DNA of 64,000 bases, from contig CAYHEW010000020.1 in NCBI GenBank assembly GCA_964355715.1, forward strand, positions 5,529-69,528, written 5' to 3'. Numbering within the stretch: the stretch's first letter is position 1; each line of letters opens with the position of its first letter. The position numbers were made by a program, and so were the translations under genes. The DNA comes from an uncultured Opitutaceae bacterium. Lineage in GTDB: Bacteria > Verrucomicrobiota > Verrucomicrobiia > Opitutales > Opitutaceae. The notes beneath the pieces were generated by a model. The model was not told the DNA's origin, searched no databases, and saw only the letters and a list, made by a program, of their open reading frames with translations. Of this stretch, positions 3,474 to 47,038 are shown in pieces.

Positions 3474-3542
3474 CTCTCGCGGAGCCGCGGAGGTCGCGGA
3501 GCGATTGGCGTCAACTCCGCGGCCTCCGCGCCTCCGCGAGAG
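3474..3542. repeat. GCGGAG-module hairpin repeat (family A, single module)
   Basis: Left arm ctctcgcggagccgcggaggtcgcggag, 13-nt loop, right arm ctccgcggcctccgcgcctccgcgagag. Lies between convergent 3' ends. The right arm nearly matches the 28-mer at 20191-20218. Confidence 0.75.
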
Positions 3543-9515: not shown

Positions 9516-9642
9516 CAGATAGCGGATACCGGAGACCGGAAAGAACCGACCCAAAGCCTCCGCCCTATCCGGTTTCCGGTATCCTCAATCCGCAATCCGC
9601 CCTCCGCCCTATCCGGTTTCCGGTATCCGCAATCCGCAATTC
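9516..9642. repeat. hairpin plus 44-bp tandem duplication filling the gspE-gspF spacer (family A-like modules)
   Basis: Left arm ggataccggagaccgga (9524-9540). Two right-arm copies tccggtttccggtatcc (9568-9584 and 9612-9628) sit inside a direct repeat cctccgccctatccggtttccggtatcc starting at 9557 and 9601. caatccg sub-repeats are also present. Confidence 0.75.
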
Positions 9643-16136: not shown

Positions 16137-16197
16137 TTACGGGAGGTAACAGAGGTCACAGAGAGCGATCCTCCGTTTCCTCCGTTACCTCCTGTAA
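16137..16197. repeat. AGGAGG/CCTCC-module hairpin repeat (family A, single module)
   Basis: ttacgggaggtaacagaggtcacagag, 7-nt loop, ctccgtttcctccgttacctcctgtaa. The same module forms the innermost arms of the 45588-45928 composite. Confidence 0.7.
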
Positions 16198-16246
16198 GAC
16201 GGATCGGGGTTCGCACATCTTCGCGGTGCAACTGCATGGTTCCGGA

Positions 16247-19633: not shown

Positions 19634-20157
19634 GGCCGCTCGGCCTCCTCGCGGCGTTCGTTCCACTGGACGCGGAGCTGTTCGCGCCGGGTCGGGTCCG
19701 ACCACGTGGGACGCAGCAGGTTCACGGTCTGGGTGAATTCCTCCGGCTCCTTCGCGCCATCAATGCGGCCGCGCACTTCCACCCGAAACAGGTCCGGCAC
19801 GGGCAATTCCTCGAGCGTGGCGGTCCATTGCAGCTGTCGGCCATCGGGCAGCGGCACGCTGCCGCCCTGCTCCACTTTGGTGCGGTCGGGTTCGTTGAGG
19901 ATCGCCTCGCGCAGGTATTCCATGCCCGGCCCGTCCACTGCGCGCCGGGCCACCGCAGCATGGGCCGACATCGTGTTGACGTAGGCCGCGCCGAGCACGA
20001 CCGCCGCCATGGCAAGGATCGCGATGCCGACGAGCACCTCGAGGAGGGTGAACGCGTTTTGTTTCCAGACGGGCTCTCGCGCCTGCCCTCCGTAGGCCTT
20101 GCGAAGGAGGGGAGGCGCGGAGGGCGCGGAGGAGGAACCAGTGAACTCTGATTTCAT
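19630..20157 (-). CDS. T2SS minor pseudopilin GspI-like (start ambiguous: 20157 or 20241)
   Basis: Prepilin motif ...WKQNA/FTLLEVLVGIAILAMAAVVLG. The only in-frame start codons are ATG 20157 (35-aa leader) and ATG 20241 (63-aa leader, ATGA overlap with the gspH stop). Both leaders are partly encoded by a repeat element. Confidence 0.6.
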   Translation of the reverse strand: MKSEFTGSSSAPSAPPLLRKAYGGQAREPVWKQNAFTLLEVLVGIAILAMAAVVLGAAYVNTMSAHAAVARRAVDGPGMEYLREAILNEPDRTKVEQGGSVPLPDGRQLQWTATLEELPVPDLFRVEVRGRIDGAKEPEEFTQTVNLLRPTWSDPTRREQLRVQWNERREEAERP

Positions 20158-20218
20158 CCCTATTTTTGAGTCCAGTTCAGAGGTCTTTAGCTCCGCGCCC
20201 TCCGCGCCTCCGCGAGAG
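20111..20218. repeat. GCGGAG-module inverted repeat (family A) inside the gspH-gspI junction
   Basis: Left arm ggaggcgcggagggcgcggagg (20111-20132). Right arm ctccgcgccctccgcgcctccgcgagag (20191-20218). The right arm differs from 3515-3542 at one position (gcgcc versus gcggc). Confidence 0.75.
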
Positions 20219-29906: not shown

Positions 29907-29971
29907 CACGCGGAGGCGCAGAGGGCGCGGAGTGCGCCAGATCGCCTCCGCGCCCTCCGCGGCTCCGCGTG
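29907..29971. repeat. GCGGAG-module hairpin repeat (family A, single module)
   Basis: cacgcggaggcgcagagggcgcggagtgcg, loop, cgcctccgcgccctccgcggctccgcgtg. Preceded by caatccgtct, which resembles the left edge of the 45588 element. Confidence 0.7.
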
Positions 29972-32068: not shown

Positions 32069-32266
32069 GTGCGACCGCGGAGTTTTTAACCACGGATTAC
32101 ACGGATTGCACGGATCCGATCCCAGACCACGATCCGGGTTAACCACTTATTCACACTGATCATCACTGATCCCAATCAGTGCTCATCAGTGTATATCAGT
32201 GGTTTTATAGGATTGGATCCGTGGTATCCGTGTAATCCGTGGTTTAAGATCGATGACCGCGGTCAC
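32069..32266. repeat. composite nested palindrome (family A: GCGG + CACGGAT + CACTGAT modules)
   Basis: Outer arms are gtgcgaccgcggag.../...gaccgcggtcac. Middle arms are aaccacggattacacggattgcacggatcc / ggatccgtggtatccgtgtaatccgtggtt. Inner arms are aaccacttattcacactgatcatcactgat / atcagtgctcatcagtgtatatcagtggtt around a ccca loop. Lies between convergent genes. The right edge overlaps the permease stop codon. Confidence 0.8.
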
Positions 32267-43900: not shown

Positions 43901-44554
43901 TCAGGTTACGTTCGAAGGCGGTGTACCCCAGCTGCGCAGGTCCCGGGCCAGGGCGCCGAAGCCATCCGGAAAATCCGCCTCCAGCCGCCGCGGGTCGCGG
44001 CGGTGCCGCTGCACCTCGCGCAGCGCGCAGCTGATCGTGAGCGGCAGCGACGGCCGGTCGGTGCCGTAGACGCGCATCTTGAGCTCGGCCCGCGTGTAGG
44101 GCACCCGTCCCCGCTCCTGTCCGCGGAGCCAGGCGGCCTCGGTGACCTGGTCGTCGCGCCCGCACAGATACCAGGCCTCGATGGCCGGCACGGCAACGCC
44201 GATGCACCGCAGGACGCGCTTGCGTCCGCGGGCCGGCGGCAGGCGCTTCACGGTCTGCCGGTAAGTGGCCCGCAGCTGGCAGAGCCGGCATTGCGGATGG
44301 AAGTAACCCGGCGCCTCGTGCCCGGCCGTGTGCACGACGCTGTCGTCCGTGTCCACCACCACAACGAGCCCGGCGGCATCCGTGTTGAAATGCAGGTGGC
44401 GCAAGACCGGCGGCAGCACCTGCGCGACATTGGGCCAGCCACGCGCGCGGAGGCCCGGGTGCACCTGGGTGATGGGGCGACCTAGAACCGACTCCACGAG
44501 CACGCGGACGGCAACCTCGTCCGCCGGGGATTCGCTGAGGAGCGCGACCTTCAT
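43901..44554 (-). CDS. Toprim-like small protein (RloB/DUF4276/AriB-like class), partner of upstream ATPase
   Basis: 217 aa from ATG 44554; the start overlaps the ATPase stop as ATGA. N-terminal strand plus acidic residues MKVALLSESPADEVAV. Hydrophobic strand ends in an acidic cluster, LVVVVDTDDS. CxxC at HPQCRLCQ. Fold assignment is by motif pattern only. Confidence 0.45.
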   Translation of the reverse strand: MKVALLSESPADEVAVRVLVESVLGRPITQVHPGLRARGWPNVAQVLPPVLRHLHFNTDAAGLVVVVDTDDSVVHTAGHEAPGYFHPQCRLCQLRATYRQTVKRLPPARGRKRVLRCIGVAVPAIEAWYLCGRDDQVTEAAWLRGQERGRVPYTRAELKMRVYGTDRPSLPLTISCALREVQRHRRDPRRLEADFPDGFGALARDLRSWGTPPSNVT

Positions 44555-45549
44555 GGTTCGTCCGGCACGCCGCCCAGAATGCCGCTGAACCACATGTCGC
44601 CGAGCGAACCCTCGCTGAGGAGACCCGGCAGGTCCGGCCGGTCGGCCAGTCGCTCGAAGCCGGCCTGGTTGCCGTGCTTGTGGGTGATGACGATCTCCTC
44701 GGGATGGTCGCGAAAAAGGTCGAGCAGGTACGGCGAGTGCGTCGTGGCGATCACCTGCACGGGCGGCCGTTTCTCCCCGAACGAGGCCGGGTAGCTCAGG
44801 CGGTACAGGTGATCGCGCACCTCGCGCAGCAGGCGCGGATGGATGCCGCGGTCGATCTCCTCGATGCAGATCACGGGCGGCGGGGTCGGATCGAAAACGA
44901 GGCTCAGCATGCCGAGCAGGTAAAGCGTGCCCTGCGAAAGATTCTCCGCGCGCACGAGCTCCGAGTCGTCGGCCAGGCGCAGCGCAAACTCGATGCTCGT
45001 GCGGCTCGGCGCGTCGAATTCGATGCGGCCGAATTCGGGGATGATGCGCACGAGTTCGGCCTGCAGCCGGGCGAAGGCCGCCGGCGCGTCCGCCTGCAGG
45101 CGGTGCAGCACGGCGGCCAGGTTGCCGCCGTTGGCGTCGAGCTCGGCGCCGTCGGCCCGCGCACCCGGTTGGTACATCGCATGATGGTCGAAATGGTAGC
45201 CGCGGATGGCGGTCAGCTGTCGGCGCAGCGCCGCGCTGCCGGATGCCCGCGTCGGCGTGATCTCCAGGAGGTTGCAGGTCTCATCATCCACGCAGCGGAG
45301 CCGCACGCGGAGGCGCGCGTAGGGTCGATTGAACTTGAAAACGAGTTCGGATGAACCGGCCGGCGACGCCCGATGCCGGCTCCGGGTGGAGTCCGGCTTC
45401 GCCACGGCGAGGTCGCGGAGTCGCAGCACTGCCTGGATCAGGCTCGTCTTGCCGCTGCCGTTGGGTCCGATGAGGAGATTGAACGGCTGCAGCGCCAGCC
45501 GCGCTCCGCGCAACGCCCTGTAATTCCGGAATGCGACCGAGGCGATCAC
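44551..45549 (-). CDS. ABC/SMC-type AAA ATPase (AAA_21-like, OLD/AbiL/PARIS-type ATPase class)
   Basis: Proposed GTG start at 45549 (VIASVAFRNYRAL...). Walker A GPNGSGKTS, signature-like NLSQGT, Walker B VICIEEIDRGIHP, H-loop IATTHSPYLLD. The track ATG at 45630 lies inside the repeat element. Confidence 0.8.
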   Translation of the reverse strand: MIASVAFRNYRALRGARLALQPFNLLIGPNGSGKTSLIQAVLRLRDLAVAKPDSTRSRHRASPAGSSELVFKFNRPYARLRVRLRCVDDETCNLLEITPTRASGSAALRRQLTAIRGYHFDHHAMYQPGARADGAELDANGGNLAAVLHRLQADAPAAFARLQAELVRIIPEFGRIEFDAPSRTSIEFALRLADDSELVRAENLSQGTLYLLGMLSLVFDPTPPPVICIEEIDRGIHPRLLREVRDHLYRLSYPASFGEKRPPVQVIATTHSPYLLDLFRDHPEEIVITHKHGNQAGFERLADRPDLPGLLSEGSLGDMWFSGILGGVPDEP

Positions 45550-45587
45550 ACCGCAGGGTGACACCGCCGGGAGCAAGCCGTCAATCC

Positions 45588-45928
45588 GGCTCACGCGGAG
45601 ACGCGGAGAGCGCGGAGCATATTTAACCACGGATTACACGGATTTCACGGATACCAAGCTGGCGAATGGAGCGTGATAGGATGGCCACAAAAGGCACAAG
45701 AGGCACAGAAGGACCCAATCAAATTACAGGAGGAAGCAGAGGAAGCGGAGATTAGGATGCAGACCGTCTGTTTCCTCCGCTACCTCCTGTCATATGCCTT
45801 GGTCCGATTTTGTGCTTTTTGCGCCTCTTGTGGCTATACCCGTGGGCAGCATCCGCGTTTTAGCTATCCGTGTGATCCGTGAAATCCGTGGTTAAAAACT
45901 CCGCGGGCTCCGCGTCTCCGCGTGAGCC
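45588..45928. repeat. 341-bp composite nested palindrome (family A, four module types)
   Basis: Mirror-ordered arms are listed from outside in.
- ggctcacgcggagacgcggagagcgcggag / ctccgcgggctccgcgtctccgcgtgagcc
- aaccacggattacacggatttcacggata / tatccgtgtgatccgtgaaatccgtggtt
- gccacaaaaggcacaagaggcacagaaggacc / ggtccgattttgtgctttttgcgcctcttgtggc
- acaggaggaagcagaggaagcggag / ctccgctacctcctgt
The centre is near 45760. Confidence 0.85.
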
Positions 45929-45943
45929 AATCCAAGCCACGCT

Positions 45944-47038
45944 TCACTCAGCGTGCACAATCACGAGGTCGTCGAAATGCAGCCCGCAGAACACGCGGTC
46001 GCCCTCGTGGAAGGCCTCGTTCATGGCGCTTTCGTTGGCCACGAGGGCCTGGAGGCGCGTGCCCTGGTCGGTGACGAGGCGGAGCTGGTCGGTCGCACCC
46101 TGGAAGATCTCCTCCTCGATGCGGGCCTCGAAGACGTTCTCGGTCTGCGGCCGCGAACGGGAGATGTGGATCTTCTCGGGGCGGATCGAGACGAGGGCCG
46201 TCGTCGCATCGGCCGGGAGCTCGAGCGCCGAGACGGTCAACTCGAGGCCGCCGTCGAGGCGGACGTGCGCCGTGAGCCCATGACGGGCAACGACGGCGCC
46301 GCTGAGCAAATTGGCCTGGCCGATGAAGTCGGCGGCAAAGGGCGTGCGCGGGCGGTGGTAGATCTCGGTGGCGGTGCCGAGCTGCTCGATGCGGCCGCGG
46401 TTGATGACGGCGATGCGGTCGCTCATCGTCAGGGCCTCCTCCTGGTCGTGAGTGACGAAGACAAAGGTGATGCCCAGGCGGCGCTGGAGGTGCTTGAGCT
46501 CGAGCCGCATCGTGTGGCGGAGCTTGGCATCGAGGGCCGAGAGGGGCTCGTCGAGGAGGAGCACCTTGGGCCGGCAGACGATGGCACGGGCCAGCGCGAC
46601 GCGCTGGCGCTGGCCGCCGGAGAGTTGGTCGGGCTGGCGCGCGGCGACCTCGCCCAGGGAAACCATGCCGAGCGCGTCGCGGATGCGCGCCTCGGCCTCG
46701 GCGGCCGGGACCCGTTGCATGCGCAGGCCAAAGCGGACGTTCTCGCGCACGGTGAGGTGCGGAAACAGCGCGTAACTCTGGAAGACCTGGTTGACGTTGC
46801 GCCGGTACGGCGGCTGGCAGGTGACATCGGCGCCATCGAGGAGGATGGCGCCGGCATCGGGAAACTCGAAGCCGGCGAGGAGACGCAGCAGCGTCGTCTT
46901 GCCGCAGCCGGAGGGTCCAAGGAGCGTCAGGAACTCGCCGGCACGCACGGAGAGGCTGACGTCGTCGACGGCGGTAAAGTCACCGAAGCGCTTGGTCACG
47001 CCGCGGACCTCGATCATGGCGGGCCGTTCGGGACTCAT
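45944..47038 (-). CDS. potA: spermidine/putrescine ABC transporter ATP-binding protein PotA
   Basis: Walker [10 protein letters not shown], signature LSGGQRQR, Walker [16 protein letters not shown]-like C-terminus. ATG 47038 overlaps the potB stop (ATGA). Confidence 0.9.

Follow-up and report, generated by a model that had tools for sequence, protein, structure and literature searches.

The DNA analysed here is a 64-kb stretch (the window, meaning the whole stretch) that PotA homologs place in the Opitutaceae, Verrucomicrobiota (with Lacunisphaera and Opitutaceae metagenome-assembled genomes, MAGs, as the named relatives). At 45588-45928 it contains a near-perfect nested palindrome of 341 nt, the arms of which are built of tandem 8-9-nt units of four kinds. 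The element belongs to a dispersed repeat family, its site is differently occupied in relatives, the unit cores are conserved while the spacers between them are hypervariable, and one of its layers is of the type associated with genes of the GxxExxY family. It is probably a gene-less, four-layer foldback repeat and a dispensable insertion, in which the CACGGAT layer corresponds to the terminal arrays of a GxxExxY cassette and which would owe its spread to nuclease-driven break-and-copy.

The inverted-repeat scan pairs the four layers in mirror order around a central loop of 17 nt (45751-45767, attaggatgcagaccgt); no strand is assigned to any of the repeat features. The outer left arm (45588-45617) consists of ggctca and three CGCGGAG units (45594-45600, 45602-45608, 45611-45617) with a period of 8-9 nt, detected by both Tandem Repeats Finder (TRF) and the inverted-repeat scan. 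It faces the outer right arm (45899-45928), with three CTCCGCG units (45899-45905, 45908-45914, 45916-45922) followed by tgagcc, and the two 30-nt arms are 93% complementary. In the second layer, tatttaac precedes three CACGGAT units with a 9-nt period (45620-45653; units at 45628, 45637 and 45646), mirrored by three ATCCGTG units (at 45866, 45875 and 45884) and gttaaaaa at 45865-45898; here complementarity is 100% over 16 nt. The third layer has three CACArArGG units on the left (45683-45712; TRF units at 45686, 45695 and 45704) and ccYtYtgtg units of lower regularity on the right (45806-45835), which pair at 45692-45710/45817-45835 with 84% complementarity. The innermost left arm (45727-45750, caGGAGGAAGCA GAGGAAGCG GAG) is composed of GAGGnnnCn units, related to a solo hairpin at 16143-16192, and its right counterpart (45768-45789) reads ctgtttcctccgctacctcctg; the centre pairs at 45711-45749/45767-45805 with 77% complementarity across the loop. 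In the GGCACA and GAGG arrays, the right side is less regular than the left. TRF reports units of ACGCGGAG (45593-45617, period 8, 3.0 copies), CACGGATTA (45628-45652, period 9, 2.8 copies), CACAAAAGG (45686-45712, period 9, 3.0 copies) and GAGGAAGCA (45730-45750, period 9, 2.3 copies), with mirror arrays at 45866-45890 and 45899-45923. Between the second and third layers lie two degenerate linkers (45654-45682 and 45836-45864), partially complementary to each other, the right one containing a small terminator-like sub-hairpin (45841-45857) followed by TTTT. An initial annotation, made from the sequence alone, had described a nested palindrome with four modules in mirror order, each of 2-3 tandem units of about 9 nt, and an asymmetric bulge; the scan, the TRF periods of 8-9 nt and the interrupted pairing at the linkers in the folds of both strands agree with it.

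Folding of each strand as RNA, which the same annotation had suggested, results in one long hairpin (-210 and -214.8 kcal/mol, compared with ~-115 for shuffled sequences; z = -19.7 and -20.2). The units are also far more frequent in the window than expected: 8 matches to CACGGATnnCACGGAT (0.01 expected), 9 to CGCGGAGnnCGCGGAG (0.56 expected) and 4 to the GAGG pattern (0.49 expected). Hairpins with tandem-unit arms, scored by a k-mer chain method (pairing of TRF consensus units overlooked irregular arms), form 9 pairings in the window and 0-1 in 20 shuffles. The sequence AATCC stands on each side of the element (45583-45587 and 45929-45933). The doubt originally attached to it as a target-site duplication persists, as it is conserved at 4 of 5 positions in one relative (L210), is missing from one side in another (L211), and lies in a motif, caatccgNctcacgcggag, shared with the copy at 29907.

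The potA loci of six relatives (L209-L214) were compared by spacer content and PotA identity. A contig from the European Nucleotide Archive (L209, PotA 100% identical) has a spacer identical to that of the window (~394 nt). In L210 (95%), the arm pairs with three CGCGGAG and three CACGGAT units are kept, and a hairpin of three CACTGAT units replaces the CACArArGG and GAGG layers. L211 (98%) has CACGGAT and CACTGAT/CACTTAT layers and the right CTCCGCG arm, with only agcggagc on the left side. The 54-nt spacer of L212 (98%) contains only ttggCTCCGCGAGAGACC, a one-unit remnant that a deletion between the two GGCTC repeats of the hairpin foot can explain. In L213 and L214 (both 83%) the gene order is the same, but the spacers of 76 and 51 nt contain no similar element. 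A presence/absence comparison had been proposed as a check on mobility, and since the sites in relatives are short, reduced to a remnant or differently filled, the 341-nt element is regarded as a dispensable insertion into a short spacer. Judging from these alignments, layers at the potA site are gained, lost and exchanged between relatives.

When the window is set against L210, core positions show 0 changes in 84 and spacer positions 8 in 14, with a third-codon divergence of potA of 0.22 (18-22% among the relatives); the cores are thus held constant, by selection or homogenisation, and the spacers change more rapidly than silent sites. In L210 and L211 the inner CACTGAT hairpin, its loop cactgatTTGGGatcagtg included, is the reverse complement of a hairpin at 32170 in the window. 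The latter belongs to a sister element (32069-32262) with one GCGGAG-like foot, arms of three CACGGAT units (32091-32115/32217-32241) and an inner CACTTAT/CACTGAT hairpin, the same module combination as at the potA site of L210 and L211. The junction GCGGAG-TTTTTAACCACGGAT is common to three sites. As both loop and junction are shared, the copies at different sites are related by descent and did not arise independently.

The initial annotation had named uniqueness of the modules to the window as a finding that would count against its view; the modules recur in hundreds of other genomes. A scan of species-representative genomes with CACGGATnnCACGGATnnCACGGAT returned at least 119 genomic stretches with three CACGGAT units. 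Among the matches listed are Verrucomicrobiota, Planctomycetota, Acidobacteriota, Bacteroidota, Leptospirales, Chloroflexota, Gemmatimonadota and some archaeal MAGs, with 37-70% G+C; the majority form the same hairpin and a few are coding or simple tandem repeats (Streptomyces, Lachnospiraceae). Among viral contigs, CACGGAT arrays were found in 89 stretches and CGCGGAG arrays in more than 120. The consensus of 53 clean hairpins shows the first unit bordered on both sides by the flank wTTTkAAC ... GTTmAAAw, which the window layer fits (tatttaaCC...GGttaaaaa). The inverted arrays have 2-4 units of C[AG]C[AG]GAT with a 9-nt period, as at 45628-45652/45866-45890, with invariant 7-nt cores and 2-nt spacers that vary freely. 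In the 53 hairpins, the spacers are biased to TA, GA, AA, TT, GG and AG and agree between arms at 58-67% of positions, and the loops measure 8 to 374 nt. The CAC arm precedes the GTG arm in 53 cases, as against 6 in the opposite order, and the unit number may differ between arms (3/2, 2/3, 3/3). The CGCGGAG hairpins of viral contigs have a foot of their own (TTCA|CGCGGAG...CTCCGCG|TGAA).

Other unit types occur at CACGGAT loci (CACGGAG, CACGAAG, CACGAAT, CACAGAT, CGCAGAT, TGACAAGG, TGGTGAT and more), and modules nest in various combinations. CGCGGAG-type arrays lie within CACGGAT arms in L014, a CACArArGG module lies within a CACGGAT hairpin in another Opitutaceae MAG (L095), as in the window, and in the viral contig L324 (2876-3521) CGCGGAG arms enclose CGCGAAG and CACGAAG arrays. 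In two further viral contigs (L311, 6464-6698; L357, 4723-4957) CGCGGAG outer arms surround other modules or unrelated GC-rich hairpins. A Leptospirales chromosome (L020, 3800-4400) has three tandem copies of a 316-nt segment with a CACGGAT/CACTGAT hairpin and a loop of ~90 nt. The genomic loci comprise 13 co-directional, 5 convergent and 3 divergent contexts, and 3 within long open reading frames (ORFs). One of the hairpins (L010, 2378-2465) adds 32 residues (STTDDTDNTDKEEDGSGCPVSSLSVLSVSSVV) as a clean in-frame insertion to a Planctomycetota histidine kinase, within its ATP-binding domain, where the reading frame is preserved owing to the 9-nt unit period, with which most frames stay open.

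The link to GxxExxY was first seen when the rare pairs with the GTG arm first were examined, as the same small gene lay between the arrays at two loci. After clustering of small ORFs within 150 nt of arrays, GxxExxY was, among the matches listed, the sole family recurring across genomic loci (8 loci, 3 phyla). When every ORF in the 1.6 Mb of pattern-fetched DNA was searched with a profile, exactly 8 GxxExxY homologs were found, all within 68 nt of an array. In four of the loci (L086, L085, L049, L073) the gene is inside the hairpin, in the order TTGAAC, three CACGGAT units, a few nucleotides, the gene, a few nucleotides, three ATCCGTG units and GTTCAA; in L063 and L083 the ATG comes after a complete hairpin, and the stop codon is covered by a solo arm. 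The gene-carrying loci, all genomic, are 8 of ~208 pattern-fetched ones (119 genomic, 89 viral), so that empty hairpins are in an approximately tenfold or greater excess. Both window elements are matched, at 92-97% identity over 28-38 nt, by the arms of L086, an Opitutaceae cassette with the gene.

Because the first 8 loci had been selected by DNA pattern, an independent sample of 79 metagenome loci was fetched solely by GxxExxY protein similarity. A tandem array is present upstream of the gene in 70 of these and downstream in 68. At least four C[AG]CnnA[TG] units occur within 160 nt in 73 of the 79 loci, but in only 5 of 198 placements chosen as controls within these loci, at a distance of 700 nt or more; the same test applied over the 64-kb window gave 51 of 1266. 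The commonest layout is array, gene, inverted array (26 loci by a strict rule, 36 by a looser one), followed by hairpin, gene, hairpin. The units counted are CACGGAT (127), CGCGGAT (38), CACAGAT (8), CGCAGAT (6) and CACTGAT (3). The same core flanks GxxExxY proteins that are only 28-31% identical (Planctomycetota, Bacteroidota). In 44 of 55 cases the upstream neighbour points the same way as the GxxExxY gene, and there are often 5-20 nt between the end of the arm and the matched coding region; this suggests expression by read-through. Many of the genes are on contigs shorter than 2 kb, as expected of assembly-breaking repeats.

The protein of ~120-125 residues was identified by NCBIfam TIGR04256 (E = 1e-36) and Pfam PF13366, PDDEXK_3 (E = 2e-34). 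The G-x-x-E-x-x-Y motif, E37, D66 and K78 are invariant even among members with 28-31% identity. Its predicted structure (predicted local distance difference test score, pLDDT, 93) resembles lambda/LHK exonuclease, Cas4 SSO0001 (template-modelling score, TM, 0.60; root-mean-square deviation 3.0), splicing endonucleases and Hjc, an archaeal Holliday-junction resolvase; a sequence search of the PDB found no relative. On the basis of these structural matches GxxExxY is predicted to be a minimal PD-(D/E)XK nuclease. With 8163 clusters at 50% identity (E ≤ 1e-3), this is a large family, and PDDEXK_3 has been listed as of unknown function, with mixed bacterial and archaeal clades (PMC3424549). Some relatives (P0280, P0282, P0292, P0317 and others), of ~250-390 residues, match the 120-residue query twice, suggesting tandem domain fusions.

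In respect to the mechanism, we infer that GxxExxY acts on the arrays and that the family spreads by break-and-copy rather than by transposition. The complete cassette would have the GxxExxY gene in the loop of a CACGGAT-type hairpin or between two of them, and the window copy would be the empty form; the CACTGAT layer, which replaces the inner modules in relatives, would likewise be the terminal inverted array of a cassette. The repeated cores may serve as the binding or recognition sites of the predicted nuclease, perhaps as extruded cruciforms. A cut at or near the hairpin or cruciform would then be repaired by copying from a family member that shares the arms, and the copying would move or exchange the content of the loop, either the gene or another hairpin module, so that composites could grow by nesting. 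Slippage between short direct repeats would trim or remove long palindromes, as in L212. Such copying between shared arms would explain why inner modules are exchanged while the outer arms stay constant, why modules nest and why empty hairpins are in excess. As a probable side effect in the host, the RNA hairpin of -210 kcal/mol between potA and the ATPase gene is expected to hinder read-through or attract RNase III. The initial annotation had proposed a search for a cognate transposase of RAYT/IS200 type or another kind; the data do not suggest the former, but another small gene, the putative PD-(D/E)XK nuclease GxxExxY, does accompany the arrays. More broadly, GxxExxY and the tandem-heptamer hairpins may be the two halves of an unrecognised cross-phylum selfish element, with a nuclease that reads the cores and spreads its gene, empty hairpins and nested cargo; we put this forward tentatively, at somewhat less than an even chance.

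Several observations weigh against the cassette interpretation. There is no GxxExxY gene or remnant in the window (hmmsearch; best tblastn E = 0.05), and the window copies are classed for this reason as gene-less derivatives, similar to MITEs (miniature inverted-repeat transposable elements). No CGCGGAG units occur in the GxxExxY flanks of the 79 protein-fetched loci, the CGCGGAG hairpins of viral contigs adjoin ordinary phage genes, and a partner gene was identified for none of the CGCGGAG, CACArArGG and GAGG layers, three of the four. Unit type and protein clade co-vary weakly (no permutation reached the within-minus-between identity difference of 0.02, but phylogeny could explain it). At the same thiolase/synthetase intergenic site, two loci (L086, 2685-3108; L215, 1460-1900; flanks 72-74% identical) both have the GxxExxY cassette, which means that cassette movement is not frequent and that long vertical inheritance is possible. 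Among the loci compared, no clean empty/filled pair shows a target-site duplication or the chemistry of insertion. The relatives compared at the potA site are ~20% diverged at silent sites, so the turnover of modules is not necessarily fast.

GxxExxY was not found in viral contigs with two queries, and no second recurrent cargo family was detected beside non-GAT arrays or between any inverted arrays; the matches to a candidate second cargo were antisense shadows of GxxExxY, syntenic epimerase genes and phage genes. Upstream of an epimerase gene in L083 (3100-3240) there is a hairpin of five GAGGCGT and then AAACGTA units, mirrored by TTACGTT, in a genome that has a GxxExxY cassette 1 kb away.

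Besides the 341-nt element, the window contains at least six similar hairpins. The solo modules noticed originally at 3474, 16137, 20111 and 29907 and the different combination at 32069 are all present, and a further hairpin was added to them. The solo CGCGGAG hairpins are at 3477-3538 (three units, 13-nt loop, between convergent genes), 20111-20214 (A+T-rich loop of 58 nt) and 29907-29969 (between divergent genes), and a solo GAGGTnACA hairpin is at 16137-16200. The additional one (9518-9640) is built of 7-nt CCGGA/GCGGAT-type units and includes a 44-nt tandem duplication (9557-9640, 97% identical, composed of ATCCGG/ATCCGC units), which pairs with 9518-9540 and is located between two co-directional ORFs.

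A host function at the RNA level is the most serious of the alternatives, although we consider it unlikely. The element would then be a terminator, an attenuator or an mRNA-stabilising hairpin at the 3' end of potA, as proposed for repetitive extragenic palindromic (REP) sequences and bacterial interspersed mosaic elements (BIMEs), and its modularity would be incidental. It begins 15 nt past the potA stop on the transcribed strand and has an extremely stable fold. Most solo hairpins also follow at least one gene (18 of 21 classifiable cases; 6 of 7 hairpins in the window). However, divergent contexts are not significantly depleted (3 of 21 compared with 25% expected), and copies are found between divergent genes (29907) and in frame inside the kinase gene. 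Relatives with the same gene order lack the element or have different contents. Two small internal sub-hairpins with T-runs are terminator-like, and only these minor ones follow the terminator pattern: the main stems have T-runs before and A-runs after them (TTTAACC...GGTTAAAAA), the opposite of an intrinsic terminator, and this holds for the CACGGAT stem, while the outer stem on the potA strand is followed by ccggattgacgg. The mismatches between arms show no excess of G•U-compatible changes on the sense strand (58 compared with 53), and those in the spacers show the 2:1 transversion ratio of unconstrained sequence, so that selection for RNA pairing alone is not supported. As far as sequence patterns can tell, inverted arrays of recognition units appear to suit the data better than a stem kept for its own sake, and for the host the 341-nt element itself is an ordinary-looking selfish or neutral insertion.

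Growth in place by replication slippage and template switching within a quasi-palindrome, with no enzyme and no movement, has a slim chance of being the whole explanation. It would fit the different unit numbers of the arms, the hypervariable spacers, the resemblance of L212 to a slippage deletion, and the many unrelated unit sequences that build the same kind of hairpin. It does not predict the same 7-mer core and flank consensus across phyla from 37% to 70% G+C, loops and junctions shared by non-orthologous copies (cactgatTTGGGatcagtg, GCGGAG-TTTTTAACCACGGAT) or the tie of the arrays to a single gene family, and template switching should leave complementary spacers, of which only about half of the positions match.

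Slimmer still is the chance that the arrays bind a host DNA- or RNA-binding protein (a nucleoid protein, or one of CsrA type through the GGA in CACGGAT and CGCGGAG), with GxxExxY as a passenger. Strict 7-nt cores with free spacers are typical of repeated protein-binding sites, CGGA is present in most cores, and heptamer direct repeats have been proposed as regulator sites in other phyla (TAACTGA, PMC4679880). Against this, the CACTGAT, CACAGAT, CACGAAT and CACArArGG units contain no GGA, the motifs are for the most part base-paired, orthologous sites can do without the elements, and the association singles out one gene family (73 of 79 loci compared with 5 of 198 controls). A chimeric or collapsed inverted repeat, which mis-joined short-read metagenomes can create and which the many very short GxxExxY contigs, where assemblers struggle, might bring to mind, is scarcely credible here, given the structured imperfections of the arms (spacer differences, bulge), the identical copy in the ENA contig L209, homologous elements at the same site in the independent JGI/NCBI assemblies L210 and L211, and the sister elements elsewhere in the window.

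By analogy, the system would be one of small dispersed palindromic repeats with a cognate nuclease gene, and the closest concept is that of REP sequences and REPINs with the REP-associated tyrosine transposase RAYT (TnpA-REP, HUH Y1). Both comprise dispersed intergenic palindromes, mostly downstream of genes, single or clustered and dispensable at each site, and a cognate small nuclease-type gene flanked by inverted copies of the repeat. The REP unit is a single imperfect palindrome of 20-40 nt with a GTAG or CGTC tag at one end (PMC3733652), whereas the arms of the window family are made of tandem 7+2-nt units. The hairpin feet read ggctcaCGCGGAG and ttaaCCACGGAT, without a terminal GTAG or CGTC, and do not fit this definition. 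In other genomes the gene family that the repeats recurrently flank is GxxExxY and not a Y1 transposase. The RAYT enzyme is of the HUH type and the candidate enzyme here has a PD-(D/E)XK fold; unlike RAYT, the GxxExxY gene is multi-copy and often inside the hairpin loop, and the modules nest. The host range centres on the Planctomycetes-Verrucomicrobia-Chlamydiae (PVC) group, Acidobacteriota and Bacteroidota, that of REP/RAYT on Proteobacteria.

MITEs and foldback (FB-type) elements are alike in that the non-autonomous copies consist of two inverted ends and little else and outnumber the gene-carrying ones. Eukaryotic foldback elements have inverted ends composed of short tandem repeats, a likeness to the window arms. 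The 341-nt element has terminal inverted repeats, and its ends are shared with cassettes that carry the 120-residue PD-(D/E)XK gene; it differs in having no DDE or other recognised transposase and no demonstrable target-site duplication (AATCC being ambiguous). Elements that are nested, built of tandem units or found in PVC bacteria receive no mention in a 2024 review on the MITEs of prokaryotes (PMC10969869). The ORF-containing intervening sequences (IVS) of 23S rRNA, such as that of Coxiella burnetii with S23p, are selfish insertions with a long stem and a small ORF of unknown function in the loop, and both their stem and the window stem are plausible RNase III substrates (PMC4990558). The window element, in contrast, is not in rRNA, is associated with another protein family, has tandem-array arms and carries no ORF. 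Heptamer repeats of cyanobacteria, Beggiatoaceae and Bacteroidetes (short tandemly repeated repetitive sequences, STRR; TAACTGA) are likewise intergenic 7-nt arrays across distant phyla, with no known transfer mechanism (PMC4679880), but they form spacerless direct arrays that are hardly ever inverted and in most cases lie immediately upstream of a start codon, and they have no tie to a nuclease gene.

The in-frame insertion in the L010 kinase has a parallel in the Rickettsia palindromic elements (RPEs), repeats that are able to insert in frame into coding genes. Their sequence, lineage and architecture are unrelated to those of the present family, and they are not known to have an associated gene.

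The repeat had not been recognised as a named family in the initial annotation, and this stands: Rfam 15 gave no match in the window at the gathering score, a permissive search returned only sub-threshold matches, nearly all to miRNA-precursor models (generic long hairpins), and the GTAG/CGTC scheme of REPs is unsuitable. Integron attC sites (single imperfect palindromes of 57-141 nt with RYYYAAC/GTTRRRY ends, beside gene cassettes and an integrase) were rejected on length, tandem units and position outside a cassette array, although ttaac and gttaaat resemble attC core sites by eye. DnaA boxes agree with the unit at only 5-6 of 9 positions (TGTGGATAA compared with CACGGATTA), a CsrA sponge is at odds with the many units without GGA and the paired motifs, no consistent complementarity to the 16S 3' end or to signal recognition particle RNA was seen, and a CRISPR-like array would have spacers of constant length. 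In the full texts searched, CACGGAT occurs only in PCR primers, and of three papers that name GxxExxY neither of the two listed deals with repeats. No published account of the repeat family or of its link to GxxExxY was found, in a search outside which most subscription journals lie, so that an earlier description is possible; the pairing of a large orphan nuclease family with cross-phylum tandem-unit hairpins is apparently undescribed so far.

The element lies, as first described, between the 3' end of potA and an ATPase cassette, both on the minus strand. The potA-like ABC ATPase gene (45944-47038, 364 residues, ABC_tran and TOBE_2; Pfam, translation and homologs) ends 15 nt from the element, and the AAA_15/AAA_21 ATPase gene (44551-45549, 332 residues; Pfam and relatives) begins with a GTG 38 nt from it. 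Relatives back this start at 45549, but an ORF beginning inside the palindrome, at GTG 45630, extends the ATPase to 359 residues (347 in the ENA record), and in L209 (5445-5490) the publicly annotated ATPase begins 15 codons early, within the outer arm. ORFs that start at 45630 or cover 45673-45882 are artefacts, as the initial annotation had held; its ATG at 45630 is in fact a minus-strand GTG, and the 69-residue ORF at 45673-45882 also starts with GTG. Tandem-unit hairpins systematically mislead the prediction of start codons. In the cassette (43904-45549, minus strand) the ATPase matches PADLOC HEC-01A (E = 1e-40), PDC-M07A and AriA (E = 3e-27), with an NCBIfam MAD3-like match below the cut-off, and its partner, a protein of 217 residues, has no match in Pfam (scanned as a 230-residue ORF), NCBIfam or PADLOC. 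The gene pair also follows potA in the Opitutaceae MAGs L213 and L214 (83% identity) and for this reason is considered a conserved candidate two-gene defence-like module and not a recent island.

The short, portable and sequence-defined arms make the nuclease hypothesis directly testable. If the nuclease were inactive on the arrays, an ordinary but well-documented repeat family would remain. If the hypothesis is true, the very large GxxExxY/PDDEXK_3 family of unknown function would gain a role and a DNA or RNA partner, small dispersed repeats would have a further kind of driver, a nuclease class beyond HUH and DDE, and it would become clear where thousands of odd palindromes in the genomes of PVC, Acidobacteriota and Bacteroidota come from. 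The family would also offer an explanation of why assemblies recurrently break and start codons are called wrongly in Verrucomicrobiota, Planctomycetota and related genomes.

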